Source of the DNA: Paracoccaceae bacterium
GTDB lineage: Bacteria > Pseudomonadota > Alphaproteobacteria > Rhodobacterales > Rhodobacteraceae
Length of the DNA stretch: 64,000 nucleotides
Assembly (NCBI GenBank): GCA_965200805.1
Contig: OZ241384.1
Span: 763,305 to 827,304 of the forward strand
Reading direction: 5' to 3'
The notes beneath the pieces are model-generated. The model was given only the letters and a program-made list of their open reading frames with translations. It was not told the DNA's origin and did no database searches. The translations under genes were made by a program, and so were the position numbers. Of this stretch, positions 4,359 through 61,693 are shown one piece after another (position 1 is the stretch's first letter; every line of letters starts with the position of its first letter).

Positions 4359-4399
4359 GACTTCGCCTTGTCCTGCGTCAGGCAATCAAGTGGAAGATG

Positions 4400-4609
4400 C
4401 TAAACACTGTCCCCCTGATCAATCTCAAGGGCCGCTTCAGCCTTGGAACCGGCCAGAACAAATCGACGATCACAATAGCCGCATTCGACCCAGCCCGTGT
4501 CCTCCGGAATCTGGTACCAGACCTTTGGATGACCCAGCGCCGCACCCTGCCCCACACAGCTGATACGCCGATTGGTCACAACAACAATATCCGGCGGATC
4601 CTTCTCCAT
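4400..4609 (-). CDS. Small zinc-finger (zf-CHCC / NDUFS6-like) protein
   Basis: C-terminal [37 protein letters not shown] fits the CHCC zinc-finger pattern. I use the internal ATG ([11 protein letters not shown]) because the longer ORF would overlap the HIT gene. Confidence 0.6.
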
Positions 4610-4613
4610 CACG

Positions 4614-5036
4614 TCAGCCTGCACTCGTGCCGGCCTGCACATGGATATCCTCGGCTTCACGGACCGGAAGCACCGCACCAAGATTGCGACCGGCAAAGAT
4701 GTGGACATGATAATGCGGGACCATCTGTATGCCGTCGGGTCCAGCATTCGAGAGGATGCGATAACCGCTGTTTCCGGACCCGGGGTCCGCATCAATGTGC
4801 TGAATCACAGTGCTCACCGCACGGGTGAGATCCACAATCTCCGCATCGCTGGCGTTATCGGCAAAGTCATCATAGGTGACGTAGGCGCCCTTGGGAATCA
4901 CCAGGACATGATCCGGCGCCAGAGGAGCAATGTCGTTAAAAGCCAGACTGTGTTCTGTTTCGTGGACTTTCGTGCAGGGCACCTCTCCCCGCAGAATTCG
5001 GGCAAAGATATTCTGATTATCGTATTGATAGGCCAT
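4614..5036 (-). CDS. HIT-family (histidine triad) nucleotide hydrolase/transferase
   Basis: 140-aa ORF with the histidine triad HYHVHIF near the C-terminus. Confidence 0.9.
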
Positions 5037-5618
5037 GGCTTCGGCAGTCCTTCAGACAGTTAACCCTCCACACCATAGGCGAAAGCATCGGGCAGTCAAA
5101 TTATCCGCAACTGCTGCCCGGCATTTCCCATCATTCCCTGTGGATGTATGAAATTTCATCCTGTCAGCAGCCGCCTGAATGATCATCCGACCATCACTGC
5201 CCGGACATGCCGGTTACAGCCCCGTTATCAGCGGCAAGGCAGGGGTGGAGGTATGAGATGCGATTCCCGATGCTCCGCTTGCTCCCATTTTTCATACCCC
5301 TTTGATCGAAACGCCATCGACAGAATTCACAGGGCGTGTTTACTAAATTCGATTTTTTTTCGATATTGTTCTTGACCTTGACCGGAATTATCGGCATCCT
5401 CGCGTCAAGGCCTGAATCTGCCCATTCACCATTAAATGCGGATTGTGGTGTCGCCTGAAGAACTCCGTACACATCAAAGTCCTCCCGAGGTCTTGACCGC
5501 AGATGAAAGGCGTTTTGCCGGGTGTTGCATGAATGCATGCGACCGGGGGCGATGCGATGTGCCATTCTGTCACCCGGAGAACTGGCGTTGATATGTGAAT
5601 TGGAACAAGGGGGAAACA

Positions 5619-5999
5619 ATGCTAAACGCACTTCGAATTGACACTCTGGCCTTCAGCAAGAAACTTCGTGAAGCCGGGGCGGATGAGAAATTGGCTGAGG
5701 CCTTTGTTGAAGGTATCACTGCAATGGATACGTCAGATCTGGCGACGAAAAGCGAACTGCGGAAGGCGGAGACCGCTCTGAAGTCGGATATTGCTGAAGT
5801 CAAGGCTGAACTGAAGTCGGATATTGCTCAATTCAGGACCGAGTTGAAGTCGGATATTGCTGAAGTCAGGACCGAGTTGAAGTCGGATATTGCTGAAGTC
5901 AGGACCGAGTTGAAATGGATCAAGATCATCGGTGGTGCCATTCTTGCACTCTTGATCCTGCCCCTTCTCTCATCTTTGATCATCGGATACATTCAGTGA
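5619..5999 (+). CDS. Coiled-coil, C-terminally membrane-anchored protein (DUF1640-like)
   Basis: AAGGGGGA lies 5 nt before the ATG at 5619. The N-terminus is LNALRIDTLAFSKKLREAG, followed by 11-residue repeats LKSDIAEV(K/R)(A/T)E and a C-terminal TM segment IIGGAILALLILPLLSSLIIG. Confidence 0.7.
   Translation: MLNALRIDTLAFSKKLREAGADEKLAEAFVEGITAMDTSDLATKSELRKAETALKSDIAEVKAELKSDIAQFRTELKSDIAEVRTELKSDIAEVRTELKWIKIIGGAILALLILPLLSSLIIGYIQ
5778..5909 (+). repeat. Tandem repeat, 4 x 33 bp, in frame inside the coiled-coil gene
   Basis: Units start at 5778, 5811, 5844 and 5877. Units 3 and 4 are identical (ttgaagtcggatattgctgaagtcaggaccgag). Confidence 0.95.
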
Positions 6000-6274
6000 A
6001 CACGGGCATACGCATTCGACACGCCCGGCGGACGGCTCTTACCGGTTTGCAACATACCGGGGCCGTAATGCGGTCGAGGTGAATCGCCGTCGTTGTTATT
6101 CATCAGTTGTTGATTCAGATCTGCAGCGCATGGCTGCAAGGAGACCATCGAGACCTGCTGGAATGAGAGACAGGGTATCTCGCCATCACAATGTGAACGC
6201 CGGAAGGTTCTCATGCATTGAAATGGGAAAGGTCGAGTGCTCCCGGGTGGGGAAAACTGTCCTGATGACGGGAA

Positions 6275-6814
6275 TTATGTCCCTTGAAATTCACACGGGA
6301 CCACTCCCCATTGAAGAATCGGGACACCGAATCCGGTGTGTTGCGGGCTTTGTGAAACTGCGGGAGAATCCTCTCTGTGGGGTCGCGGGTCGATACGGGA
6401 GATCGCAGCAGCAGCCATGCGGAATCCGGTCTGTGCAGAGTCTGCATGACCGGGACCGTGTCCATGAAGAAATCCGGCAGCCTGACGGCGCGCCTCGTCA
6501 GCGAGTCCCCGGTCGAGACCGGCGGCACAACCCTCTGCGACGACGCTGTACATGATCCCGGCGAAACCATCGTTCTGACCTGGGGATCGGCGGGGCAATT
6601 CAGCGACCGAATGATGAACACCGCGGCGGCGCACTGTGCCGGCACGATGACCATCACCATCCACGACAGCAAGGGTCCTGCGACAGGGCAGATCGTCCTC
6701 CCGGTGCCACCAGGAACAGCTCTGCGCGGGGATGCGGGTGGGGAATGAGTAATCCATGGTCTGGAGACGCGCACCGGAAGATATCCGGGACTTTCTTGAG
6801 CGGTTGCTTTTCAC
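6275..6814 (-). pseudogene. PfkB-family sugar kinase fragment (C-terminal half, frame-disrupted)
   Basis: The tail AAGFLHGHGPGHADSAQTGFRMAAAAISRIDPRPHRED parallels the C-terminus of the intact PfkB kinase at 11561-12550. The DNA at 6345-6475 is visibly similar to 11565-11700. The upstream VVPPVSTGDS (a TGAGD-like motif) lies in a different frame. There is room for only ~190 of ~330 codons before the ROK gene. Confidence 0.55.
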
Positions 6815-6861
6815 AAATCGTCTGTCCTCAACTGTGCCAAATACACCAGTCGAAAGTGCAG

Positions 6862-8067
6862 CTATCCTGAAAGCAAAGTGTTTTGTTCAGGCATGTAGGC
6901 TGCGCTCACCAGGGTCGCGGCGGCACCTATTGTTCTCGCCTGTCGCCCAAAAGTACCCGCTTCCACCTCGGGCATCAGAACCCCCTGCAAATCCGTCTGT
7001 TGAAGCTGGGAAATGACCTCGGACACCAGTCTCCCCGTGACTTCTGTCGGCATGGCGCCATCGATGATAACTGCTTCAAAGTCGATGATGGATAATGATG
7101 ATATGACAGCATGAGCCAGGTTGCGTCCTGCTCGTGTGATCCAATCGGAAACCAGCGGTTCAAATCTTCCCCAGTCATCCGAGGCTTCATAAGGCGAAAA
7201 TGAGCGACCGGTGATATCCAGGACCATCCGTTCCAAGGTCACGAGGGAGGCATGATCCACCAACCTGTTCCCACCCTCCTGATCCGGAACCCGCATTGGT
7301 CCAAAACCACCGGCATTTCCCCTCCGCCCGCGAAACACATGCCCATTCAAAACAATGCCGCCACCGATGAAGGTGCCGACGTAAAAGTAGATCCAGTCCT
7401 GCTTGTCTGCATGGGATCCAAAAACCACCTCAGCCCGACAAGCCGCCGTCGCGTCGTTTTCCAGGACAACTTCCCATGGCACGATTTTTCCGATTTCGCG
7501 TTCGGCGTCAAAGTCCTGCCAGGCTTCCATTTCCTCGGCCGGAGCATCAAAGTCGTCAGTCCAGTGCCACAGTTCGAAAGGCATCGCTATGGCCATGCCA
7601 GAAATGGCCTTGCAGGTTCGCTTCGCCGAGCAAAGGAGATCCTGCAGTTCATCCTGCACAAATCTCAATGTGGTGGCCGGAGTTGGAAATGGCTGAAACA
7701 TCTCTTTTGACGTGACCACCTCACCCATAAAGTTGACCACCGCAAGTTCCATACTGCGGCGTCCTATTTTCAGGGCGACATAGGAGTGCGCCAGCGGATT
7801 GATTCGAAGAGGGGTCGAGGGCGCGCCAACTCTTCCACGAATCGGTTCGCCGCGCAGCAGCAAACCGTCGGCTTCCAGAGAGCGAAAAATCACGGAGATC
7901 GCATTCGCGGAAAGCCCGGTTGCACGAGTCGCCTCGGCTTTGGACAACTCTCCATGTTCTCGCACAAGTTGCAGCACAAGCCGCTCGTTGTAATTGCCTA
8001 CGGCAACCTGGTTCGTTCCCCTCTTGGGGTTCGCACACAACCGTTCTTCTTTGTCTTCCTGATCCAT
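6862..8067 (-). CDS. ROK-family transcriptional regulator
   Basis: N-terminal winged helix-turn-helix (NERLVLQLVREHGELSKAEATRATGLSANAISVIFRSLEADGLL) plus a ROK sugar-kinase-like body (GTFIGGGIVLNGHVFRGRRGNAGGFG). The start is taken at MDQEDKE. Confidence 0.85.
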   Translation of the reverse strand: MDQEDKEERLCANPKRGTNQVAVGNYNERLVLQLVREHGELSKAEATRATGLSANAISVIFRSLEADGLLLRGEPIRGRVGAPSTPLRINPLAHSYVALKIGRRSMELAVVNFMGEVVTSKEMFQPFPTPATTLRFVQDELQDLLCSAKRTCKAISGMAIAMPFELWHWTDDFDAPAEEMEAWQDFDAEREIGKIVPWEVVLENDATAACRAEVVFGSHADKQDWIYFYVGTFIGGGIVLNGHVFRGRRGNAGGFGPMRVPDQEGGNRLVDHASLVTLERMVLDITGRSFSPYEASDDWGRFEPLVSDWITRAGRNLAHAVISSLSIIDFEAVIIDGAMPTEVTGRLVSEVISQLQQTDLQGVLMPEVEAGTFGRQARTIGAAATLVSAAYMPEQNTLLSG

Positions 8068-8386
8068 ATCAATCCATTTGCATCCTGTTGACCATCCCCG
8101 GCAAGTGCCGCACGGGTTTATGCCCAATGCCAGCTGCAGTATTCACCGCAGACATGAGCAGATTAACATGATTATTAATTCATAAAGAAGTAATTATTGA
8201 CAGAGGTCAATTGTTTGCATAGGTCATGTGCTGACGGCGAAGTCGTCGGCGGGAGAATGGCCTGGGGAGCGGGGAAACCGTTATCTGGTATATCAGGGAC
8301 ATGACTCTCAGCAAATTGTGGGAGCCGATTCAATCCATTGGAATGGCTCGATTTTCAGGCTGATTAATTTTGGAGACCAAAATGAA

Positions 8387-8535
8387 GGGGATTATATACT
8401 TAAGTAACAATTATCATAATTTATTTCATATAATCAATGACATAGACCATCTGTGCTCATGGATAGCAATTCAAACATAAAATACTGATTATTATAGACT
8501 AATTTGATTTTTTGTTACTTAAGTATATAATTCCC
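8387..8535 (+). mobile_element. MITE copy 1 (149 bp, non-coding, AT-rich)
   Basis: Terminal inverted repeats GGGGATTATATACTTAAGTAAC ... GTTACTTAAGTATATAATTCCC. Flanked by the 8-bp direct repeat AAAATGAA (8379-8386 and 8536-8543). Homologous to the copies at 28992 and 30255. Confidence 0.85.
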
Positions 8536-8538
8536 AAA

Positions 8539-9549
8539 ATGAACTATATCAAAACCGGTGTTGCGGCTCTGGCAACCTCGATCTGCGTGGGAGGAGCCGC
8601 CGCAGACACCAGCGTTTGTCTCATCACCAAAGACGCGACAAATCCATTTTTCGTAAAGATGGCCCAGGGTGCATTTGCGAAAGCGGCCGAAATCGGCGTC
8701 GAACTGCGCTCTTATGCAGGCAAGTTTGACGGCGATCATGAAACTCAGGTTGCCGCCATCGAGACGTGCATTGCAGCGGGTGCCGGTGGTATCCTGTTGG
8801 CGGCATCGGACACCAAGGCGATCACGTCATCAGTTGAGCAGGCACGCAGTGCCGGTCTTGTGGTATTGGCATTGGACACACCGCTTGATCCAATTGACGC
8901 CGCAGACATGACGTTCGCAACTGACAATTTCCTCGCAGGTGAACTGATCGGTGCCTGGGCCGCGAAAACAATGGGTGACACCTCAGGTGCCAGAATCGGT
9001 CTGCTCAACATAAATGTCTCGCAGCCAACCGTCGGCGTCCTTCGCAACCAGGGATTCCTGACCGGTTTTGGGATTGATATTGGCGATCCTTCGAAATGGG
9101 GCGATGAAACCGACCCGCGCATCGTCGGCCACGAACTCTCCAATGGTAATGCCGAAGGTGGTCGTAAAGGTATGGAAAACCTCCTCGCCATTGATCCGGG
9201 AATCAATGTTGTCTACACGATCAATGAGCCTGCCGCCGCGGGCGCCCATGAGGCTCTCAAGGCTGTTGGACGCGAAGATGACGTCATCGTTGTATCGGTG
9301 GACGGCGGCTGTCCAGGTGTCGCCGATGTCGCCGCGGGCGTGATTGGTGCTACGGCCCAGCAGTATCCCCTGGACATGGCCAGTCTGGGAGTTGAGGCAA
9401 TTGTCAAAGCTGTTGAAACAGGTGAAATGCCGGTTGCGACAGAAGGAAAAGCCTTCTTCGACACTGGTGTTGGCCTCATCACCAATGCACCGGTTGATGG
9501 CCTTGACCAGCTGTCTGTTGCTGAAGGCGCAGACCTCTGCTGGGGCTGA
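8539..9549 (+). CDS. Sugar ABC transporter periplasmic substrate-binding protein (ribose/fructose-binding type)
   Basis: Signal peptide [22 protein letters not shown], then [19 protein letters not shown], typical of the Peripla_BP_4/RbsB-like fold. First gene of an SBP-permease-ATPase operon. Confidence 0.85.
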
Positions 9550-9639
9550 TTGTTCCCGGTATCGGCGAGGGTGCCCCGGCACCCTCGCACCCAGTTGTTC
9601 CTGAAACGGAAATGTGAAGCAAAGTCTCCGGGGAATGAG

Positions 9640-10701
9640 ATGATTTCTGACATTTCAGATCAGGCAGACGGGAAACTCCATAAAAACAGAACGGTGACCG
9701 AGTTTGATGGGCAGGATCAACCCGGCAACAGGATCGCTCATTTCCTGCACGACAATCCGGCAGTCGTTCCCCTGATCGTGCTGCTGGCCTCAACCACCAT
9801 CTTTAGCGTTCTGATCGGTGAGCGCTTCTTTTCAGCATTCACCTTGACCCTCATTCTTCAGCAAGTCGCAATTGTCGGGATTGTTGCCTGCGCACAATCG
9901 CTTGTCATACTGACCGCGGGGATCGATTTATCGGTGGGCGCGATCATGGTCCTGTCATCGGTGGTCATGGGAAAATTCACGTTCGATCTCGGGCTTCCTT
10001 CCGGCATTGCAATCTTCTTTGGCCTGGCCTGCGGTCTCCTCATTGGCGCGATCAATGGTGTGCTGGTCGCCTGTGTCAGACTGCCCCCATTCATTGTAAC
10101 CCTTGGTATGTGGCAGATCGCACTTGCTGCAAATTTCCTCTATTCCGGCAGCGAGGTCATCCGCAGCCAGGACATCGCAGCCCATGCGCCCCTCCTGCAA
10201 TTCTTTGGAAGAAAGGTTGAAATCGGTGGCGCGGTCTTCACGTATGGCGTCATACTCATGCTTCTTCTGGTCGGCTTTCTTTCCTATGTCCTGGGTCAGA
10301 CGGCCTGGGGTCGGCATGTATATGCGGTCGGCGATGATCCCGATGCAGCGGAACTGTCAGGCGTCAACATCAAGTCCACGCTGATCTCAGTCTATGCACT
10401 TGCCGGGCTGATCTGTGCATTCGCGGGATGGGTGCTGATTGGACGTTTGGGATCGGTGTCACCCCAGGCCGGACAACTGGCCAATATTGAATCCATCACG
10501 GCAGTTGTCATCGGAGGCATCTCACTGTTCGGGGGGCGCGGATCGATCGCCGGATCGCTCTTTGGTGCGCTGATCGTTGGTGTGTTTTCGCTCGGGCTGC
10601 GGCTGCTCGGTGCCGATGTCCAGTGGACCTATCTTCTCATCGGCATTCTTATCATTGTTGCGGTAACCGTGGACCAGTACATCAGAAAGGCAAGTGCATA
10701 A
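9640..10701 (+). CDS. Sugar ABC transporter permease (RbsC/FrcC-like, single polytopic subunit)
   Basis: Multiple hydrophobic segments and the motif TAGIDLSVGAIMVLS. Its stop overlaps the next start (TAATG at 10699-10703). The start is uncertain; the longest ORF begins at 9550. Confidence 0.85.
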   Translation: MISDISDQADGKLHKNRTVTEFDGQDQPGNRIAHFLHDNPAVVPLIVLLASTTIFSVLIGERFFSAFTLTLILQQVAIVGIVACAQSLVILTAGIDLSVGAIMVLSSVVMGKFTFDLGLPSGIAIFFGLACGLLIGAINGVLVACVRLPPFIVTLGMWQIALAANFLYSGSEVIRSQDIAAHAPLLQFFGRKVEIGGAVFTYGVILMLLLVGFLSYVLGQTAWGRHVYAVGDDPDAAELSGVNIKSTLISVYALAGLICAFAGWVLIGRLGSVSPQAGQLANIESITAVVIGGISLFGGRGSIAGSLFGALIVGVFSLGLRLLGADVQWTYLLIGILIIVAVTVDQYIRKASA

Positions 10702-11480
10702 TGGATCAGGCCGTTCTGAAAGGACGGGGACTCACCAAGCGTTACGGTCGGGTGACTGCGATGGAAAACAGTGATTTCGATCTTTTTTCAGGCGAAATTC
10801 TTGCCGTGATTGGTGACAACGGGGCGGGCAAATCGACGCTGATCAAGGCCCTGTCCGGAGCCATCAGGCCGGATAGCGGCGAGGTCATCCTTGATGGCGA
10901 GTTGGTCACTTTCAACTCACCCATTCACGCGCGGGAGTATGGCATCGAAACAGTCTACCAGACTCTGGCGATGTCACCTGCACTGTCCATAGCCGACAAC
11001 ATGTTCATGGGCCGGGAGATCCGGCGTCAGGGCGTAATGGGAAAAGTGTTCCGACAACTCGACAGGAAGGCGATGAATCGGATTGCCAGGGAAAAACTGT
11101 CGGAGCTGGGTCTCATGACGATCCAGAATATCGACCAAAAAGTCGAAACTCTTTCCGGAGGTCAAAGACAGGGTGTCGCAGTGGCACGTGCAGCTGCGTT
11201 CGGCTCCCGTGTTGTGATTCTTGACGAGCCGACAGCTGCATTGGGGGTGAAGGAAGGTCGCCGTGTTCTCGACCTGATCCTTGAAGTCAGGTCCCGGGGC
11301 ATTCCGATTATCCTGATCAGCCACAACATGCCTCATGTCTTCGAGGTGGCCGACCGTATCCATGTGCATCGTCTTGGTCGGCGCCTTTGCGTGATTGATC
11401 CCAGGGACATTTCCATGTCTGATGCGGTCGCGCTCATGACCGGTGCCATGCAACCGGAGGAAGTCGATGTTGCAGCGTGA
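10701..11480 (+). CDS. Sugar ABC transporter ATP-binding protein (single-cassette, FrcA-like)
   Basis: Walker A GDNGAGKST, signature LSGGQRQGV, Walker B VVILDEPTAAL and H-loop ISHNM. Confidence 0.9.
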   Translation: MDQAVLKGRGLTKRYGRVTAMENSDFDLFSGEILAVIGDNGAGKSTLIKALSGAIRPDSGEVILDGELVTFNSPIHAREYGIETVYQTLAMSPALSIADNMFMGREIRRQGVMGKVFRQLDRKAMNRIAREKLSELGLMTIQNIDQKVETLSGGQRQGVAVARAAAFGSRVVILDEPTAALGVKEGRRVLDLILEVRSRGIPIILISHNMPHVFEVADRIHVHRLGRRLCVIDPRDISMSDAVALMTGAMQPEEVDVAA

Positions 11481-11560
11481 ATCTGCTGTCGATAGCACGA
11501 CAATCTCCGGCCTGAAAAAGGCAGTGCCCGCATTCCGACCACCGACCTGGAGACATCTGG

Positions 11561-12550
11561 TCATTTGACTGAAATTGTGAGAACATCCTCTCTGTAGGGT
11601 CGCGGGCCGATATGGGAAATCGTTGCGGCAGCCATACGGCATCCAATCTGCGCAGAGTCTGCATGACCGAGACCGGCACAGTGTCCGTGAAGAAATCCGG
11701 CGGCAAACTGATCTCCTGCTCCGGTGGCATCAACGATATCCGTGGGGATTGCATCCACCTTGATGCTCGCATTGTTCTCAATGACCAGAACTCCATCCCC
11801 GGAACAGGTGCAGACGATCAGGATTGCCTCGCAGACAGCTCTGGAAACCACCGCTGGCAATGACGTGACCTCATAGAGCGCCATGAACTCTTCCTGATTG
11901 CCGATAACCATATCCGCGTTGTTTCTGATCAGATCCTGAAAAGCCTCCCGATGACGTTCAATGCAAAACGGATCTGACAGCGAAATGGCAACCCTTCCCC
12001 CTGCCCGGCGGCAAACCCGGGACGCATAGCGATAGGCCGCCTGGCTGTCCGGTCCATCAAATCGGTACCCTTCAAGAAACAGCCAGTTTGTCGCAGTCAC
12101 ACTCTCCTCATCAATGTCCTCCGGTGACAGGAATTCGGACGCGCCGAGATATGTGTTCATTGATCGCTCGCCATCGGGTGTGATGAGAATCATGGATCGT
12201 CCGGTTTCCTCTGCGGCACTGCCGACAAGTTTTGTCGTTGTGAAATCCACCCCGAGACCATGGAGGTCACCGGTGAAGATCCGGCCGAGAAAATCATCCT
12301 TGACCTTGCCGATATAGGCTGTTCTGCTGCCTAGGAGTGCCAGCCCAGCAGCTGTATTTGCCGCTGACCCGCCCGAACGCTCAACGGCACCACTCATGAG
12401 ATTGTACAACTTGCGGGCTCTTGTGATATCAACCAGCTGCATGACACCCTTGGTAACCCCATGCACTGTGAGAAATGATTCATCCACGTGACCCAGAACA
12501 TCAACGATGGCATTGCCGACCGAGACGACGTCGTATTTTTTCCCAATCAT
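11561..12550 (-). CDS. PfkB-family carbohydrate/adenosine kinase
   Basis: 329-aa ORF with an N-terminal VVSVGNAIVDV motif and C-terminal DATGAGDQFAAGFLHG. Confidence 0.85.
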   Translation of the reverse strand: MIGKKYDVVSVGNAIVDVLGHVDESFLTVHGVTKGVMQLVDITRARKLYNLMSGAVERSGGSAANTAAGLALLGSRTAYIGKVKDDFLGRIFTGDLHGLGVDFTTTKLVGSAAEETGRSMILITPDGERSMNTYLGASEFLSPEDIDEESVTATNWLFLEGYRFDGPDSQAAYRYASRVCRRAGGRVAISLSDPFCIERHREAFQDLIRNNADMVIGNQEEFMALYEVTSLPAVVSRAVCEAILIVCTCSGDGVLVIENNASIKVDAIPTDIVDATGAGDQFAAGFLHGHCAGLGHADSAQIGCRMAAATISHIGPRPYREDVLTISVK

Positions 12551-12702
12551 GGTGACCTCTCACGCCCGGACATCATTCCGTTGCACCGGATCAATGCTGC
12601 CATGACAAAAGGACGATGGAGGCAGACCAAGGCCTGGTGCTGATCGCAATGGAGGCACAGACAGGGAGCATCTCACACTGTCCGGTCAAGGCAACCGGAC
12701 GA

Positions 12703-13359
12703 TCAGCCATCAGGAACACCGTACCCTGCCAGCATCTCCGCCGTATCATCAATCTGCTCCCTGGTGAGGATGACCGGATCACCGGCCCGCATGGCAAGAT
12801 AATATTGCCGGGCAATTGTCTCGAGTTCGACGGCCCGCCACATTGCCTGCTCAATCCCCAGACCCGTTGCAACCATACCATGATTGGCCAGCAGGCAGGC
12901 AGTGCGCCCCTCAATCGCGGCAATCGCCAGATCCGCCAGTTCGGGAGAGCCGAATGTTGCATAGCCGGAACACCGCACATCAATACCGCCAAATGCGGCC
13001 ATCATGTAATGGCAGGCAGGGATGGGACGGCGCAAAATTGCAAGGCTCGTGCTGTAGGGCGGATGCGCATGGACAATGGCTGTGACATCGTTGCGGTTTT
13101 TCATCAGGCGCCAGTGGATTCGCCATTCGGTCGAGGGTTTGCGTGGACCGGTCCAGTCTCCTGTCATGGACCCGGCCAGATCCATGGCCGCAATCATGTC
13201 CGGCGTCATTTTCCTGTAGGGTGTCGCTGATGGTGAGATCAGCATGGTGTCCTCATGCCGAATGGAAATATTGCCCGATGTCCCCTGGTTCAGACCATTG
13301 GCATTCATCTCCAGGCAGGCATCGATGATATCCCTCCGGACATCGCTTTCCGTGGCCAT
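12703..13359 (-). CDS. Class II aldolase/adducin-family protein (fuculose-P aldolase / ribulose-5-P 4-epimerase-like)
   Basis: 218-aa ORF with GTSGNISIR, the metal-binding histidines IVHAHPPYS and LLANHGMVATG. Confidence 0.85.
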   Translation of the reverse strand: MATESDVRRDIIDACLEMNANGLNQGTSGNISIRHEDTMLISPSATPYRKMTPDMIAAMDLAGSMTGDWTGPRKPSTEWRIHWRLMKNRNDVTAIVHAHPPYSTSLAILRRPIPACHYMMAAFGGIDVRCSGYATFGSPELADLAIAAIEGRTACLLANHGMVATGLGIEQAMWRAVELETIARQYYLAMRAGDPVILTREQIDDTAEMLAGYGVPDG

Positions 13360-13362
13360 TTT

Positions 13363-14166
13363 CTATCCTTTCTCATGCGCTTCCAGCAAGTGGCTGACAA
13401 TTTCACGAAACCCGCTTCCACCTGCTGACTGTGCCACCCATTTTGGTGTCACGGTCATCTGATCAGCAAAATCACACACATTGGCAACCCCGCAGGCGTT
13501 GGCAAAGAAGGTGAACATCGGCGCATCATTCGGGCTGTCACCGACAAAGATGCATTCAGCATTTCGTTCATCGATTCTGATCTGCAGTCTTTCCATCGCA
13601 AACTGTCGGGTCATGGACAGCTTGTCATAATTCCCAAACCATCCGTTGACATGGATTGAGGAGATTTTGGCGATGGCTCCCTCTTCCATAAAAATCTGTT
13701 TGATGCGGGCAATGTCCTGATCGGCAAGCCGCGGAACATCCTCGCAGAAATCAACAGCGAGATCGGCAATACGGAAAGACTGGTCAGCCGAGAGAGCCGC
13801 GCCGGGCACTTCCGCCCTGATCCGGTCAATGATCCGGTCAAACCGATTGCTGTCACTGATATAGGGAGCAACATCCGGATGGAATGAGCGGATCATGCGT
13901 CGTGCCTGCCGGTCATAGGCGTAATAAAATGCCCCGTTTTCACCGACCACACCGGCAACCGGCCAAACGCGGGCAATCATGTCACACCAGCCGGCCGGCC
14001 GGCCCGTAACGGGGACAACGGCAATGCCGGCACGGTCAAGGTCCTCAAGGGCCTGGTAGGCAGCACCCGGCAGACGGCCCGCGGTTGTCAGGGTGTCATC
14101 AATATCACAGAAGGCAAACCGGACCGAGCGCGCAGTCTCTGGCGGCATTGAGGCAATCGGCTGCAT
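13363..14166 (-). CDS. HAD-superfamily hydrolase (subfamily IIB-like phosphatase)
   Basis: Motif I FCDIDDTLT and motif IV VGDSPNDAPMF. The ATG at 14166 lies 5 nt after the upstream stop. The longer ORF would overlap the upstream gene. Confidence 0.75.
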   Translation of the reverse strand: MQPIASMPPETARSVRFAFCDIDDTLTTAGRLPGAAYQALEDLDRAGIAVVPVTGRPAGWCDMIARVWPVAGVVGENGAFYYAYDRQARRMIRSFHPDVAPYISDSNRFDRIIDRIRAEVPGAALSADQSFRIADLAVDFCEDVPRLADQDIARIKQIFMEEGAIAKISSIHVNGWFGNYDKLSMTRQFAMERLQIRIDERNAECIFVGDSPNDAPMFTFFANACGVANVCDFADQMTVTPKWVAQSAGGSGFREIVSHLLEAHEKG

Positions 14167-14170
14167 CACC

Positions 14171-15598
14171 TCAGCGCTCCATCCGTGCCAGATCGGGCAG
14201 CACCCCCATTGCTGCTGCAAGGTCACAGAAGGAAAAGCGATCCCTGATCTCATGGGCGTGTGACACCGCCTCGTGATAGAATTCGAGCGGCACACCCAGA
14301 TCCTCCGCCGTTGTCGGACCTCCGGCTTCCCTGAGGCGTCTCTCCATCACCTCAACGGGGACGGCAATCTCCAGACACTCGGCCCGCAATTCAGGCCAGA
14401 TTCGGGCCAGTGTGTCGTTCACGTGTTCAATTCTCCGGGCATCAAGCGGTTTCTGCGCGAGTGCCCCGGCACATCGCTGCGCGACATCTTTGCCCATCCG
14501 CCGCGTCATGTCATCATGATCCACCGGGACCGGGGAGAGAGTCGGCGGTGCCTCGGAAGCCAGTATGTGTTGCTGAATTCGGCCCATGGTCAGTGTTGCC
14601 ACGCCCACCTGCTGACCATGCGTTGACCCGGGGTGCCGGTCACCGGCAAAACAATCAATGTAATGCGAGATTTGATGCTCTCCCATCGAACCGTGATTGG
14701 AGACGCCGGTGAAGGAAATTCCAAGTCCGCAGAGAGTGAGGACACGAAAGAGAAAACCCACAGCGTCGGGATTGCCTCTGGCGATTCCGGACGCATGGTC
14801 CATGAGGATCAGCTCATCGGGGATTTCAATCAGATAGGGTTCATGGCGATAGAATGTGCCAAGGAGTCGATGGGACATCCACCAGTCAATCTGGGCTGTC
14901 GAGCGGCAGAGTGAATCACCAAATCCGGCTGCATTGAGCCATGGCGGCGCCGAAGCACAGACCTCAAGATCGACAAAGAATCCCGCGGGCAGCTGTGCCG
15001 ACCTTGAAACCTTGAGACCGTCATCCAGGGTCATTGACGCGGTTGAGGACGTGTAGCCATTCATTGATCCGGCTGTCGCAAAGACACAATAACGCTGGCG
15101 CTGGCGGTATGTGGCAAACTTGACCAGATCGTTCACTGTTCCGGAGCCAACCGCAACCACGGACCGCTCGGGGTCAAGCCTTTGGGTGAGGGTCCGTGCT
15201 GTCGCCATATCGGCGTGCGGATGATCAAGAATGATTTCATCAACCGCACCTGTCCTGGCAAGACTCCTGGCAATCCGCTCACCGAGCGCACCGTGGGTCC
15301 CCGAGTCGGAGACAATGGTGTAGGGCGGTGCAAATCCAATCGACCGGACCAGTTCGGCATCCCTGTTTGCGAGCGAATCCTCAATGACAATGCGACTGGC
15401 GAACCCCGTCTGCAGACGCGAGCCGGTCAGGGGATTGATCCAGGTGCCCCTGCAGAACGCATCGATGAGGTCTGTCCAGGAGCGTGGTGTCATGACCGGG
15501 GACATCTGCGGTGCTGCCATGACCACGCGCTGGCCCGGTGTGAGGGAAATGGCTGCCATATCCGGTGGAACGGGTCGGAAGGTCGGGGCGTTTGCCAT
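14171..15598 (-). CDS. Iron-containing alcohol dehydrogenase-family protein (glycerol-1-phosphate dehydrogenase / AraM-like)
   Basis: Has VVAVGSGTVNDLVKFA and the His-rich metal site GSMGEHQISHY...HGQQVG. The start is uncertain. The longest ORF (to 15811) would overlap the divergent regulator gene, so I use the internal ATG at 15598. Confidence 0.7.
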   Translation of the reverse strand: MANAPTFRPVPPDMAAISLTPGQRVVMAAPQMSPVMTPRSWTDLIDAFCRGTWINPLTGSRLQTGFASRIVIEDSLANRDAELVRSIGFAPPYTIVSDSGTHGALGERIARSLARTGAVDEIILDHPHADMATARTLTQRLDPERSVVAVGSGTVNDLVKFATYRQRQRYCVFATAGSMNGYTSSTASMTLDDGLKVSRSAQLPAGFFVDLEVCASAPPWLNAAGFGDSLCRSTAQIDWWMSHRLLGTFYRHEPYLIEIPDELILMDHASGIARGNPDAVGFLFRVLTLCGLGISFTGVSNHGSMGEHQISHYIDCFAGDRHPGSTHGQQVGVATLTMGRIQQHILASEAPPTLSPVPVDHDDMTRRMGKDVAQRCAGALAQKPLDARRIEHVNDTLARIWPELRAECLEIAVPVEVMERRLREAGGPTTAEDLGVPLEFYHEAVSHAHEIRDRFSFCDLAAAMGVLPDLARMER

Positions 15599-28991: not shown

Positions 28992-29140
28992 GGGGATTAT
29001 ATACTTGAGTGACCAATTTCCTAATTTATCTCATATAATCAATAACATAAACCAACTGTATCCATAGATGGGAATTAAAGCATAAAATACTGATCCTTAT
29101 GGACTAATTTAATTTTCTGTCACTTAAGTATATAATCCCC
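28992..29140 (+). mobile_element. MITE copy 2 (149 bp)
   Basis: Same TIRs as copy 1 (GGGGATTATATACTTGAGTGAC ... GTCACTTAAGTATATAATCCCC). The 8-bp direct repeat is CTATTAAA (28984-28991 and 29141-29148). It is inserted in the 3' part of ORF A. Confidence 0.85.
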
Positions 29141-29703: not shown

Positions 29704-30550
29704 GCTGTTCCTTTCAGCATTATGTCTCGTGCTCTATCGATTTCTTGCCTAAAGTGAGCCCAGGAAGATTGAGATTTCACTTTGTCACACTCAGCCAAGA
29801 GATTGTAGTGTATAGTCTTTTTCAGATTATTTTTATGACGGTCTTTGGACAAGCGTCCCGCTTTCTTGAGGAGGGTGGGCGAAAGATAAGCCAGTGACGC
29901 GGCTGCGGCACCAACAACGAGAAATACCGGCCAAGAAAACGTGACAACCGGTATGACAAAAAATATTGTGGATGTTGTTGTCGCCAACGATGTAGCCCCC
30001 AAGGCAAGACCGCCTGAAGCAAGAGCGGCGGCGGCACCTGCGGAAGCGACAGACATTTCCACCTTACTTGCATTCAGTGACGTGTCCAGATTCCCAAAAC
30101 GCTCCAGAGATTCTGCAAGGGACATCTGAAGATCTGCTGCAAGGGATCTGTTGACTGCCATGATGCTTTCTTCAATCTGCTGATGGACAGGCCTTAGAGC
30201 CTCTTCCCGGCGCAACAACAGATCTCTGTCAGGTATTGACTCAACCTTCTCAAGGGGGATTATATACTTGAGTAACCAAAAAAAAATTAAATTAGTTCAT
30301 AAGGATCAGTATTTTATGCTTTAATTCCCATCTATGGGTACAGTTGGTTTATGTCATTGATTATATGAGATAAATTAGGAAATTGGTTACTCAAGTATAT
30401 AATCCCCTTCTCAAGGGTCAATTGAGAAATCCGCTCTGCGGCTGTCCGGCATTCATTGAAGGCTTGTTGACGTATTTTCTCCCACCATTCAATGATTTCC
30501 ATGCGCTGGAGATAATGAAAAGAGAGGGGATCATTGCATGAAGCGTTCAT
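29700..30550 (-). pseudogene. Hypothetical membrane protein 'B', split by MITE copy 3
   Basis: GGAGG lies 6 nt before the ATG at 30550. Deleting 30255-30415 (the element plus one TSD copy) joins ...AAERISQLTLEK to VESIPDRDLLLRREEAL... in frame, giving ~230 aa. It contains a Gly/Ala-rich double hydrophobic segment. It is a paralogue of ORF C at both termini. Confidence 0.6.
30255..30407 (-). mobile_element. MITE copy 3 (153 bp, inverted relative to copies 1 and 2)
   Basis: Its reverse complement is nearly identical to copy 2. The 8-bp direct repeat is TTCTCAAG (30247-30254 and 30408-30415). Confidence 0.85.
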
Positions 30551-30588: not shown

Positions 30589-31062
30589 TCATGGTATGAT
30601 GTCATTACTCTCTACTTGCCTCAAACGGATATCCCTCGCATCATCGATTACTTTTTTGAAATGAGCCCAAACCGTGGGCGGGGTGCTGTCATCTTCGGTC
30701 AGCGGATGGTTGCGGATAGTTGTTTGCAAATGGATTTTATTGTTTGTGAAGGGGACTTCCATCTTAACGGACAGTGGTTTTGGCATGTGCAGCGATGCGG
30801 CCAGAGCACGGCAGAATGTCTCAATCCCTGCTTCAACCACTCCCCGCATCCTTTCCTGCTTCTTTTGCCCAAAGATATTATCATAAACGGTATCCTCGAG
30901 ACCCATCTTCTCCTCTTCGTTTTCGAAGCAGGCTTTGGAAATCTTCTCTGCAGCTTTGCAACAAGCATCAAAGACACGAGCGTGCTCTGCCTCCCACCAT
31001 TCAATGATTTCCATGCGTTTAAGCTCTGGAGGATTCGCAGGCACAGCAGTCCTCTCATTCAT
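30589..31062 (-). CDS. Hypothetical soluble protein 'C', paralogue of B without the membrane segment
   Basis: Shares with B the N-terminal RMEIIEWWE...F..C..AAEKIS and the C-terminal WAHFKKVIDDARDIRL. AAAGGGA lies upstream of the ATG. Confidence 0.5.
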   Translation of the reverse strand: MNERTAVPANPPELKRMEIIEWWEAEHARVFDACCKAAEKISKACFENEEEKMGLEDTVYDNIFGQKKQERMRGVVEAGIETFCRALAASLHMPKPLSVKMEVPFTNNKIHLQTTIRNHPLTEDDSTPPTVWAHFKKVIDDARDIRLRQVESNDIIP

Positions 31063-50481: not shown

Positions 50482-51996
50482 CTAGCGGTCGACTGTGTCC
50501 ATCCGGGGAGTGACTTGAGCAGGATCGGGCATGGAATCGTGCGGGTTCTCGTCAATCGGCCAGATCTTTCTCTTGAGATTGTGGTAGCTGTTCGTGGCTG
50601 GATTGTTCGGATACGGCCCGTCGACAGAGGCATAGAGGACATGGGCGGCGATGGCGGAAAACGCATCATGGAAGTGATTGGTGGACTTGACCACAAGCAG
50701 GGCCCTTCTCGAGGGATTGATACCAAAGCTTGCAAACACATCCGGATGGAAGACCTGACTGCGTACGGTGTTCAGGATGACATCGATACCCCCGATCATG
50801 ATCCGGACACTGTCACCGAGTGGCACGACACTTGCACCAAAGCTCTGAACCGCATCAGGCAGAATGCGGCGCACCGTGACGTTTGCGTCAAGCGGTTCGC
50901 CGCCTGAATGGGACATCTTCCCCCCGAAGCGCAGACGCAATTCGGTGCCTTCGCCGGCTGACATGCAGGTGCGGACTGCGATTGGATCCCAGATGGTTGC
51001 CAACGCGGCATTGCCCATCTTGCGCTGGATCATCTCACGCAGAATGACTGTGGAGTCTCCAGGGGCACCGCCGCCCGGATTGTCCCACACATCGGCAACC
51101 ACAACCGGTTTGCTGGTCAGCGAGCAGGCTTTGTCCAGAGCCTCGCATGGCGTCAGAAAATCCGGCCGTGTCCGACCCCTCATCGAAAACACCTCCATCC
51201 CGAGTTTTTGGGCGAGCCGATCCCCCTCATCCTTTGCATCATCGGTAATCACAATGATCCTGGCCCCAAGATCCGGGACATCGCCCGCCATGAACCCATG
51301 AATGAGCGAAACGGACAGGATTCCGCCGCAGCCCTCGATCGCCCTCAACGCATCAATAAAACTGCGCATCGGCTCCTGACTTGTTGGAAAGACATCAATG
51401 AGCCGACAATCGAAGGTCGATATCACGGGCACGATCCGCCCCGTTGCCGCACTGTCCACAAGGTCGACAAGGTCCTCCGCTGCCCTGACGAAGTCGGTAT
51501 GGGGGAACTCCTTGAAGACTGTGATCAGATCGGCATTCTCGACACGTCTGGCAGACAGGTGGCTGTGCGGGTCAAATGTGACCCCGACAATGACATCAGG
51601 CCCGACAACAGAGCGCACGGCTTCGAGCAACTCGCCCTCGCAATCGAGACAATCCTGGGCCACCATCGCGCCATGCAATCCAAGCAGCACGATGTCCACC
51701 GGGAGCGCCAGGTGAAGCTCTTCAAGGAGTTGGTCACGCAGGGTTTCCCAGGTCCTCTGGTTGATTATGCCACCCGGCTCGGCCCAGGTCGCCGTCCCCT
51801 CGATCAATGTCCAATGCATTTTTTCGGCTTTTGCCCGGGCAACCGGATAGATCGCACTGCACAATGTTGGTGTCGAGGGGTGCAGACCGGGGGGTGCGTA
51901 GAAACTGTCCCTGAAATCACGCAAGTCCGTCCGCAACGGCGAAAAGGTGTTGGTTTCCGTAGCGATTGATCCGAGGAAGACACGTCTCGGGCTCAT
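50482..51996 (-). CDS. M81-family metallopeptidase (MlrC / microcystinase C-like)
   Basis: 504-aa ORF. The N-terminus RVFLGSIATETNTFSP is typical of the MlrC N-terminal domain. A 4-nt overlap couples it to the upstream ABC ATPase gene. Confidence 0.8.
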   Translation of the reverse strand: MSPRRVFLGSIATETNTFSPLRTDLRDFRDSFYAPPGLHPSTPTLCSAIYPVARAKAEKMHWTLIEGTATWAEPGGIINQRTWETLRDQLLEELHLALPVDIVLLGLHGAMVAQDCLDCEGELLEAVRSVVGPDVIVGVTFDPHSHLSARRVENADLITVFKEFPHTDFVRAAEDLVDLVDSAATGRIVPVISTFDCRLIDVFPTSQEPMRSFIDALRAIEGCGGILSVSLIHGFMAGDVPDLGARIIVITDDAKDEGDRLAQKLGMEVFSMRGRTRPDFLTPCEALDKACSLTSKPVVVADVWDNPGGGAPGDSTVILREMIQRKMGNAALATIWDPIAVRTCMSAGEGTELRLRFGGKMSHSGGEPLDANVTVRRILPDAVQSFGASVVPLGDSVRIMIGGIDVILNTVRSQVFHPDVFASFGINPSRRALLVVKSTNHFHDAFSAIAAHVLYASVDGPYPNNPATNSYHNLKRKIWPIDENPHDSMPDPAQVTPRMDTVDR

Positions 51997-52077
51997 GATC
52001 GCCTCTTCAGGTCAATTCGGGGAATCGAATCCAGCAGACTTTGCGTATAAGCATGTTGCGGTGCCTGGAAGATTTGC
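51902..52077. repeat. Copy A of a 176-bp dispersed direct repeat (end of ATPase gene plus start of mlrC-like gene)
   Basis: Matches 61518-61693 with 5 mismatches by eye, in the same orientation. Confidence 0.9.
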
Positions 52078-55631: not shown

Positions 55632-57173
55632 TTATTTTGAAACATTCCAGAAGTGCGGCCAGATCAATGTTGCCTCGCCAAGCCCCTCAAGACCTGGTGA
55701 TGCGATGTTGTAGGTATAGACATCACCCGTCTTCATCGTTGGAACCTGATCATAGATCAACGCCTGAATCTCAGCCCAGATCGCCTGCCGCTCGGCTGGG
55801 TCAGAACTCTCCGTGAACCTGGCCTTCAAGGCATTCTTTTCCTCAGTTGTCCACCAACCGGGATAGTTGTCATTCATCACCGAAATCAGGATCGGGTCCG
55901 GCACAAATCCATGATGGGTGAAGAACATGTCCCATTGGTCCGGCTGTGCCCGCTTCTCAATCAGTGTGGCCCAATCATAGACCTGCAGATCAATATTGAA
56001 GCCCGCTCCTGCCAACTGTCTCGTGTAGACAATCGCCTTGTCGTAATGAAATGGGTAGTTTGTCGAGACCATGAATTTGATTGGTTCACCATCATACCCT
56101 GCTTCCTCTGCCATGCTGCGTGCAGTTTCAGTATCACCCATGCTGAAGTGCTCAGTGCCGGCATCCGAATACCAGACATTTCCATCAGGCAGGAATGAAC
56201 CGTTCGAGCGCCACAACCCCTCGGGACCGATTGCGACCTGCAGTGCGGGCACCTTGTCCAATGCGGTCTGAATTGCACGCCGAAGTCCGAAGTTGTCCTG
56301 CAACGGGCCATCCTTGGAGTTCATGAACACAAGACCAAAGATCGGGCCGCCATTCAGGATTGTCACAACCGAGGGATCGGCCTCAAGATCGGCATACAGA
56401 TCGCCTGGAATGCTTTCGGCATAGTCATAATCACCGGCCCTCAACCCCGCGACGCGTGTTCCGACATCAGGGACAGGGATAAATCGCAGTGCGTCAAACG
56501 CAGCAACACGCATGCCACCGTAGCCGTCGGCGTCACCGTCGGGTGATGCGTAGTCATCAAATCTTACCAGCTCGACATGACGATTTGGTTTCCACTCACT
56601 GAACATATAAGGTCCTGTGCCAATGTAGTTCTCCGGTGCGATTGGTTCCTTGCCAGCTCCGCCGACCACAGATTCCGGATAGATTGCCGGGCCGCCATTG
56701 ATGAAGGCAAGAAGATTTTTCCAGGGACCAAAGGGGCGGGCAAGTTTGATTGTGACTGCATGATCACCCGCAGCCGAAACGCTTTCGACATTCGAAAACA
56801 GCAGACCGCCCCGTGAACCGAATTCGCCCCATCGGTTCAGGGATGCGACAACATCCGCCGATGTCATATCCTGCCCATCGTGGAACTTCACGCCCTTTCG
56901 GAGCATGATCGTGATCGTCTTCCCGTCATCCGAGACCTCCTCGCCGGTGGCAAGCAGGCCAACGGGAGAATTCGAAGCATCAAATGTGTAGAGCCCCTCA
57001 AACATATGATGGGCAATTGTCGTCGACAGATCAGACGTGACGACTTGCTGGTCAAGAGTTGGTGGCTCGCCGACGGTTGCATAACGCAATGTCCCGGTCG
57101 CGAATGCCGCATTGGCCAGTGTGGTGAACGCTCCCAGAGCAACCACCGAGAACAAGCAGATTCTGAGGTTCAT
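55632..57173 (-). CDS. Peptide/nickel ABC transporter substrate-binding protein (family 5, DppA/OppA-like)
   Basis: Signal peptide MNLRICLFSVVALGAFTTLANA. 513 aa, and the first gene of the dpp-like operon. Confidence 0.85.
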   Translation of the reverse strand: MNLRICLFSVVALGAFTTLANAAFATGTLRYATVGEPPTLDQQVVTSDLSTTIAHHMFEGLYTFDASNSPVGLLATGEEVSDDGKTITIMLRKGVKFHDGQDMTSADVVASLNRWGEFGSRGGLLFSNVESVSAAGDHAVTIKLARPFGPWKNLLAFINGGPAIYPESVVGGAGKEPIAPENYIGTGPYMFSEWKPNRHVELVRFDDYASPDGDADGYGGMRVAAFDALRFIPVPDVGTRVAGLRAGDYDYAESIPGDLYADLEADPSVVTILNGGPIFGLVFMNSKDGPLQDNFGLRRAIQTALDKVPALQVAIGPEGLWRSNGSFLPDGNVWYSDAGTEHFSMGDTETARSMAEEAGYDGEPIKFMVSTNYPFHYDKAIVYTRQLAGAGFNIDLQVYDWATLIEKRAQPDQWDMFFTHHGFVPDPILISVMNDNYPGWWTTEEKNALKARFTESSDPAERQAIWAEIQALIYDQVPTMKTGDVYTYNIASPGLEGLGEATLIWPHFWNVSK

Positions 57174-57587
57174 AGCCCCCTCCTTGTAAGGAAATTTTGT
57201 AAGTATATTATATTAATCACAAAATATGTCAAATTTGAATCCGAATAATTCCTGTGAATTAATAGAAGAATATTTTTTATTACATGATTTTATTGTATTA
57301 TTTTACAAATAATAATTCATTTCCAAAATGTTATTTTCTTTCTTTTTATTCCAAGATACGCTGATTTGCACATTGCCATATTGCTCACGGATTGAGAACA
57401 TCATTCATCCTGTCCGCTGTGCCTGCACCGCCACCAAACCCTGTTCCTTGTTTCGCCTGTCCATGATCGGTCGGCGTGACGGATTTTTGCACCGTCAGCA
57501 TAGGGTCTTGTGGACCCGGACCATCTGGATCGGCACGCTCGGCACTGTCTCACCTTGAGACCCGCTTCCTGTCGGCCTTGGGACGGT

Positions 57588-61331: not shown

Positions 61332-61517
61332 GTGTGCGATCTGGGGTTCATCTCATCCCTGCCATCATTTGCCATGAATTCGGGACAATCATTGCGACCC
61401 GCTTCCGGTCGGGGTCGACCCGCCCTCATCCGAAAAAGAGGATCCAGGGCCCGGATGATCGCGTCCATCTGCCGGCAGGCGGTCTGGAGATAGAAATGCA
61501 TAAGCGGGCGATGCATA

Positions 61518-61693
61518 AAACTGTCCCTGAAATCACGCAAGTCCGTCCGCAACGGCGAAAAGGTGTTGGTTTCCGTAGCGATTGATCCGAGGAAGACATG
61601 TCTCGGGCTCATGATCGCCTCTTCAGGTCAATTCGGGGGGTCGAATCCAGCAGACTTTGCGTATAAGCATGTTGCGGTGTCTGGAAGATCTGC
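61518..61693. repeat. Copy B of the 176-bp dispersed direct repeat
   Basis: Near-identical to 51902-52077. It encodes only ...QIFQTPQHAYTQSLLDSTPRIDLKRRS-stop and MSPRHVFLGSIATETNTFSPLRTDLRDFRDSF, with no gene bodies attached. Confidence 0.9.

Follow-up and report, generated by a model that had tools for sequence, protein, structure and literature searches.

What becomes of a transport operon when a mobile element lands exactly on the start codon of its leading gene? The question is raised by a 64,000-nt stretch of contig OZ241384.1 from a Paracoccaceae bacterium (the window), in which the gene for a periplasmic sugar-binding protein is preceded by a copy, W1 (8387-8535, plus strand), of a miniature inverted-repeat transposable element (MITE). 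W1 is 149 bp long, has a GC content of 25% and lacks a transposase gene. On both sides it is bordered by the octamer AAAATGAA: the left copy of this target-site duplication (8379-8386) holds a first ATG at 8382-8384, and the right copy (8536-8543) holds the ATG at 8539-8541 that is the native start of the binding-protein gene. We show that a 149-bp non-autonomous derivative of the IS1595 family inserted into this A+T-rich octamer over the start codon. The start codon was regenerated downstream because the family's 8-bp target duplication copied the octamer that holds the ATG. The native Shine-Dalgarno sequence, GGAGA (8372-8376, plus strand), stands 5 nt 5' of the first ATG copy only, and the insertion therefore leaves this sequence and the first ATG at the head of a new 32-codon open reading frame (ORF), MKGIIYLSNNYHNLFHIINDIDHLCSWIAIQT (8382-8480, plus strand), that runs on into the element. 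This ORF, the sole one to enter W1, ends with a stop codon at 8478-8480, 58 nt short of the true start. The ATG at 8539 has no purine-rich tract on its 5' side, only AT-rich element DNA. The original prediction, made from the letters of the sequence, had described the 8-bp duplication with its two ATG copies, the short ORF opened by GGAGA and the first ATG, the second ATG devoid of a Shine-Dalgarno sequence behind AT-rich DNA, and a TATAAT (8526-8531) that ends 7 nt before that ATG with a TTGATT (8504-8509) across a 16-nt spacer. All positions could be reproduced, the short ORF appears in the ORF list, and the state of the second ATG was confirmed on reading the sequence.

W1 has the defining features of a bacterial MITE and, in its termini and target duplication, those of an IS1595-family derivative. 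Its left terminal inverted repeat, GGGGATTATATACTTAAGTAACAA (8387-8410, plus strand), is 24 nt long and agrees at 23 of 24 positions with the right one, GGGAATTATATACTTAAGTAACAA (8512-8535, minus strand), in which the TATAAT lies 4 nt from the tip. A repeat finder extended the inverted arms to 50 nt (8387-8436 and 8486-8535, 74% complementary) and reported a 10-nt direct repeat, CCAAAATGAA. GC content over the W1 region is 24-27%, versus 56% for the window. At up to three mismatches, GGGGATTATATACTTAAGTAACAA occurs six times in the window versus zero times in 100 shuffles, and the six termini make up three elements: W1, W2 (28992-29140, plus strand, 149 bp) and the inverted W3 (30255-30407, minus strand, 153 bp). 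The perfect 8-bp duplications around them are all different (AAAATGAA for W1, CTATTAAA for W2 and TTCTCAAG for W3). W2 and W3 share 93% identity, and W1 is 83% identical to either. The two sister copies, oppositely oriented and 1.1 kb apart, each split a minus-strand ORF, and in-silico removal of the element with one duplication restores frames of 286 (W2) and 235 (W3) amino acids (aa). W1, W2 and W3 are separate insertion events, each with its own duplication. The 235-aa frame obtained by excising W3 is paralogous to the adjoining ORF at 30589-31062, with RMEIIEWWE present in both.

If W1 was inserted at this start codon, related genomes should hold the uninterrupted site, which the original prediction had expected to read as a Shine-Dalgarno sequence and then one copy of AAAATGAA. 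L124, the nearest of the orthologous loci (89% protein identity), reads GGGAGACCAAAATGAAATAT, exactly the predicted empty site: GGGAGACC, then a single AAAATGAA. This locus has a frameshift and was used for the 5' region only. The sequence at the start is ctagGGAGACCAAAATGAAATATATC in L124, GGGAGGACCACATGAACTACATCAAAACC in L062 (Celeribacter halophilus), GGGAGGACCAGATGAAC in L145 and GGGAGTAGAAAAATGAAC in L144; in the last three, the Shine-Dalgarno sequence is followed after 5-6 nt by ATGAA. The insert of about 150 bp is absent from all four orthologous loci, and the orthologues carry GGGAG(A/G) where the window has its Shine-Dalgarno sequence. Deleting 8387-8543 from the window in silico yields GGAGACCAAAATGAACTATATCAAAACC, with the empty-allele junction GGAGACCAAAATGAACTAT. 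The ATG at 8539 is taken as the native start because orthologous proteins begin MNYIK/MKYLK; nearly all of the sixty best relatives listed (76-89% identity) start within a residue or two of this position, and it is the closest that begin in this way. TTG 8512 was considered as an extended start and rejected, with no Shine-Dalgarno sequence before it and orthologues starting at MNYIK.

The same comparisons bear on the notion that there was no true insertion and that W1 arose in assembly or is an AT-rich palindrome formed by chance. What speaks for it is that exact look-ups with the binding protein (under two start choices), the permease and the regulator of the ROK family encoded upstream failed to recover the insertion site from other assemblies of the species. 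When the N-terminal half of the binding protein was used in a homology search, nothing exceeded 84% identity, and a metagenome scan gave other species only, the best being L124 at 89%. Three contigs, from GCA_026709725.1, ERZ27276890 and ERZ23500216, encode a product identical to that of the neighbouring pfkB-family kinase gene; at 99.87% identity to the window, they together cover 10531-15337 only. An artefact, however, would have to produce three copies with different perfect 8-bp duplications and a terminus that is common to transposase-bearing elements in other genomes and unmatched in shuffles, and precise excision would have to recreate the orthologous empty site by accident. We regard it as scarcely credible.

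As a separate matter, the ends of the three pfkB contigs (L146-L148) fall at window positions 10531, 10794, 14791 and 15337, and the three independent short-read assemblies break at two shared points, 10794 (inside the ATPase gene) and 14791. The window sequence has no obvious repeat at either breakpoint.

Where does the element come from? An exact scan with GGRATTATATACTTRAGTRAC over one genome per prokaryotic species returned 61 loci, for a pattern with an estimated two or so chance matches in the collection, a figure that calls for care with lone single-terminus matches. Loci with both ends bound elements of 172 bp to 5.4 kb, and every family member has a TATAAT 4 nt in from either tip. Elements of 2.5-4.6 kb bounded by the same 22-nt terminus as W1 encode transposases with the Pfam domains DDE_Tnp_IS1595 and Zn_ribbon_IS1595; an exact match to a 21-nt terminus pattern delimits those in L035, L057 and L050, with ORFs that match PF12762 and PF12760. 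One form of 2,748 bp, multi-copy in a Ruegeria metagenome-assembled genome (MAG), has three products: a 341-aa protein with DDE_Tnp_IS1595 (E = 5e-42) and Zn_ribbon_IS1595, an N6_N4 DNA methylase, and a 222-aa ORF with no Pfam match. Other transposons that share the terminus carry a D12 methylase or a methylase-Mrr fusion as cargo. Judged by its sequence, the window element is a MITE of the IS1595 family, and the proposal that a MITE had struck the start codon is borne out by its multiple copies, their distinct 8-bp duplications and a terminus identical to that of IS1595-family transposons. Past the terminus, W1 has no match to any of the other-genome elements compared; among the DNA searched, its internal sequence occurs only in this genome. 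The terminus search revealed no transposase-bearing copy within the 64-kb window; we infer that W1 was mobilized by a resident transposase. An Rfam scan of the whole window returned no family. Neither the locus nor the MITE nor the 2.7-kb parent gave a useful match among PLSDB plasmids, where the best transposase relative is 47% identical and lacks the terminus.

Target preference accounts for the position of W1. The 8-bp duplications of 14 elements (13 perfect, one with one mismatch) are 87% A+T. Octamers with at least 7 of 8 positions A+T make up only 1.2% of those in the window, with a concentration around the ribosome-binding site and the Met-Asn-Tyr-Ile-Lys codons, at 8361-8390. Because the family prefers A+T-rich octamers and the genome is GC-rich, the strike on the start codon is an expected by-product and no evidence of design. 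A second such strike may be represented by L038 466-5531, a member of about 5 kb in a Ruegeria MAG, whose duplication TTTCATTG (reverse complement CAATGAAA) holds a candidate ATG heading an adenylate-cyclase-like ORF (MKRMSTT...), though the true start there is uncertain. A survey of element ends beside ORF starts in other genomes gave mostly interrupted ORFs, not true starts.

The wider family is of interest in its own right. The terminus GGGRATTATATACTTRAGTRAC joins IS1595-type transposons carrying DNA methyltransferase or restriction-type passenger genes, found at L035 3095-5842 (also in L032, L036, L046, L055 and L058), L057 4659-7202, L050 24-4606, L049 1409-4894 and L003 4801-6992. MAGs that contain the 22-nt terminus bear the labels Alpha- and Gammaproteobacteria, Verrucomicrobiota, Bacteroidota, Rhodothermales, Acidobacteriota, Actinomycetota and Candidatus Entotheonella, with several of these loci on megabase-scale contigs; copies linked to a transposase were confirmed for the two proteobacterial classes and for Acidobacteriota. 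Identity among the transposases is only 35-57%, despite near-identical termini. Entotheonella is linked to sponges, and several names of terminus-bearing MAGs point to sponge metagenomes. The SB0670 bins have been placed among sponge-associated Entoporibacteria (PMC7883664). With one terminus in many phyla and methyltransferase or restriction cargo, this parent transposon family may mark horizontal transfer within communities associated with sponges, and may help to trace such transfer in host-associated marine communities.

What, then, does the insertion do to the operon? The binding-protein gene (8539-9549, plus strand; FrcB/RbsB-like, 336 aa, Peripla_BP_4) is followed by an ATP-binding cassette (ABC) permease gene (9640-10701, plus strand; BPD_transp_2) with its own Shine-Dalgarno sequence, GGGGA, and by an ABC ATPase gene (10701-11480, plus strand) that overlaps the permease stop in TGATG and encodes 259 aa, as in orthologues. 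All three are intact. A divergent, full-length gene for the ROK-family regulator (6862-8067, minus strand) lies upstream, an arrangement shared with L062 and L145. This organization follows from NCBIfam and Pfam assignments, and L062 has the same gene order. By its domains the operon is of FrcB/RbsB type, and relatives of the binding protein are annotated 'fructose transport system substrate-binding protein'; the substrate is a prediction. A conserved, operator-like palindromic box, ATTATTAATTCATA...AATTAATTATTGACA (8171-8202, plus strand), overlaps the native -35 hexamer TTGACA (8197-8202) of the operon and does so in five taxa (window, L124, L062, L144 and L145). The box probably serves the divergent ROK regulator as its operator. 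The insertion left the box untouched, and alignment with the four orthologous loci shows the native promoter and operator region of the window to be intact. Between the binding-protein and permease genes, at 9565-9588, we also observed a GC-rich 10-bp stem-loop, GCGAGGGTGC-CCCG-GCACCCTCGC, with no T run after it, which may be an mRNA stabilizer or attenuator.

Of three functional outcomes, we rank first, with a little better than even confidence, a knock-down of binding-protein translation. On transcripts from the native promoter, the first AUG, optimally placed at 5-nt spacing, would capture the initiating ribosomes; the short ORF would be translated efficiently and the binding protein poorly. 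The transporter would then be knocked down, not necessarily abolished, with residual expression that may come from initiation without a Shine-Dalgarno sequence at an unpaired AUG 8539 or, alternatively, from the terminal TTGATT-16-TATAAT giving a leaderless or near-leaderless mRNA. The insertion would be recent or weakly selected, its host genome being one that withstands other disruptive copies of this element. Reduced translation was judged most likely because the two sister copies, W2 and W3, interrupt ORFs. A search of W1 and the adjoining DNA gave no intrinsic terminator. In read-through RNA, the element is predicted to fold into a hairpin (-62 kcal/mol, z = -6.4) that closes where the element ends, with AUG 8539 unpaired immediately 3' of the hairpin.

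Several observations nevertheless weigh against a knock-down. None of the four genes (binding protein, permease, ATPase and regulator) is truncated, and at otherwise invariant columns the binding protein has one lineage-specific substitution, as compared with 0-2 in orthologues (ten orthologues, L124 left aside). The intact genes and the single substitution fit a recent insertion and retained function equally and do not discriminate between them. Many alphaproteobacterial genes are translated without a Shine-Dalgarno sequence, and its loss need not be severe. Finally, the strong promoter-like site (10/12) that ends 7 nt before the ATG could restore expression.

This last point leads to a different account, in which the right end of W1 is an outward promoter. 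Transcription would start at, or 1-2 nt before, the A of the ATG at 8539, giving a leaderless mRNA that is translated without a Shine-Dalgarno sequence and freeing the operon from the upstream ROK operator. The candidate promoter TTGATT-16 nt-TATAAT (8504-8531, plus strand) has a perfect -10 hexamer and a predicted start at 8537-8539, which leaves a leader of 0-2 nt; reading outward, the hexamers are followed by TCCCAAA and then by the ATG. The 7 nt from the -10 hexamer to the ATG are the canonical distance to a start site, and this geometry, the match of 10/12 with a 16-nt spacer, the TATAAT at both tips of all family members, and an operon whose genes are intact and whose binding protein is free of excess lineage-specific substitutions all favour a donated promoter. 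So does the TTG of the -35 hexamer, which is owed to a G unique to W1, W2 and W3 having TTAATT. However, promoter-like hexamers are common at 25% GC, with four sites in the region versus 2.1 expected. The TATAAT belongs to a terminus conserved across many phyla and is thereby explained by transposase binding. The -35 hexamer is not conserved, the TTAATT of W2 and W3 matching at 3/6 and the spacer of W3 differing in length, and the only promoter part conserved among W1-W3 is the TATAAT within the inverted repeat. W2 and W3 also lie inside ORFs, unlike what selection for promoter delivery would produce. We therefore hold promoter donation to be possible but on the unlikely side. Its bolder extension is more doubtful still: the MITE would have turned a repressor-controlled, Shine-Dalgarno-led uptake operon into a constitutive leaderless one, the A-to-G change in W1 would be a selected promoter-up mutation, and the IS1595-type terminus would serve as a portable -10 box for symbiont genomes across phyla.

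The predicted hairpin is relevant to the third outcome, that the insertion is nearly neutral and the native, ROK-regulated transcript still gives enough binding protein. Three routes can be envisaged. The hairpin could bring the native Shine-Dalgarno sequence to about 13 nt from the second AUG, forming a split ribosome-binding site of the kind present in phage T4 genes 25 and 38; ribosomes ending the 32-codon ORF could re-initiate 58 nt downstream; or an AU-rich unpaired leader could allow initiation without a Shine-Dalgarno sequence. Consistent with these routes, the stable hairpin is predicted to close exactly at the element ends with AUG 8539 unpaired, the path from the Shine-Dalgarno sequence to that AUG across the helix base is 10 + 3 nt, and the native promoter, operator box and genes are intact. 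But the first AUG, at an optimal 5 nt from the same Shine-Dalgarno sequence, should win the competition; an effective spacing of 13 nt is at the edge of what is workable; a 58-nt gap is long for re-initiation; and all three routes are conjectural. A near-neutral insertion accordingly seems improbable to us, and reduced translation remains the reading we prefer.

In the vicinity of the operon, a 130-bp stretch at 6353-6481 matches the 3' end of the pfkB-family kinase gene (11570-11704) at about 81% identity. It sits in a 2.4-kb region without long ORFs (4385-6862) and is probably a pseudogene remnant. The presence of this fragment nearby suggests a genome that tolerates gene loss.

How does W1 compare with known elements? 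Correia repeat-enclosed elements of Neisseria are MITEs of about 100-155 bp with inverted repeats that lie near or within genes and are co-transcribed as hairpins; their ends have promoter-like -10 and -35 boxes able to drive neighbours, they make a TA duplication, and no transposase is known for them. Experiments have demonstrated both their promoter activity and their RNase III effects. W1 appears to resemble them as a short, gene-adjacent MITE with inverted repeats and promoter-like terminal boxes, but it has an 8-bp duplication in place of TA, and its promoter is predicted only. Outward or hybrid promoters are also found in ISAba1, ISEcp1, IS1 and IS10 (pOUT), autonomous insertion sequences whose start sites have been mapped and whose transcripts usually have an ordinary leader. 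Like them, W1 has outward-directed boxes at its end (a -10 hexamer, in some elements with a -35) positioned to transcribe the adjacent gene, but W1 is a MITE and its predicted mRNA is leaderless. IS1595-family transposons with passenger genes were reportedly treated by Siguier, Gagnevin and Chandler in 2009 (Res Microbiol 160:232). The candidate parents of W1 are like these in having a zinc ribbon with DDE_Tnp_IS1595, 8-bp A+T-rich duplications and passengers; they differ in that their passengers are DNA methyltransferases or restriction-modification genes and in that an identical terminus spans MAGs of many phyla while the transposases are 35-57% identical. The nearest published parallel among MITEs is a 165-bp, ISHwa6-related element of Haloquadratum walsbyi, which is derived from IS1595 and has a 25-nt inverted repeat and an 8-bp direct repeat (PMC3852290, Table 4). 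It and W1 are alike in size (149 vs 165 bp), in inverted repeats of about 24-25 nt, in 8-bp repeats, in the lack of a transposase and in termini as in IS1595-family elements. In contrast, the host of W1 is a marine alphaproteobacterium that is probably sponge-associated, the internal sequence of W1 is confined to this genome among the DNA searched, the GGGRATTATATACTTRAGTRAC clade is without a close match in PLSDB plasmids, and the autonomous partner was not seen within the window. In the literature we found no relevant record of a sponge-symbiont MITE or of a MITE yielding a leaderless mRNA.

The duplicated start codon and the short ORF created with it form a neat configuration that is not surprising to specialists. 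It is still a textbook-clean case in which a target-site duplication regenerates a start codon yet severs it from the ribosome-binding site, and it offers a natural construct that separates the roles of the Shine-Dalgarno sequence, an upstream ORF, a MITE hairpin and an element-borne -10 hexamer in a marine alphaproteobacterium. The fructose/ribose-type transporter of a probable symbiont is possibly impaired, which matters for metabolic reconstruction from gene presence alone.

Elsewhere in the window, a 270-bp intergenic stretch at 57141-57410, upstream of the minus-strand gene 55632-57173, falls to 16% GC; we considered it as a MITE and rejected it, as it has no terminal inverted repeats or duplication. 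A 190-bp direct repeat with 95% identity links 51888-52077 and 61505-61693, the first copy spanning the junction of two minus-strand ORFs. At 5595-5999, an ORF encodes the tandem peptide repeats ELKSDIAEV[KR]T...

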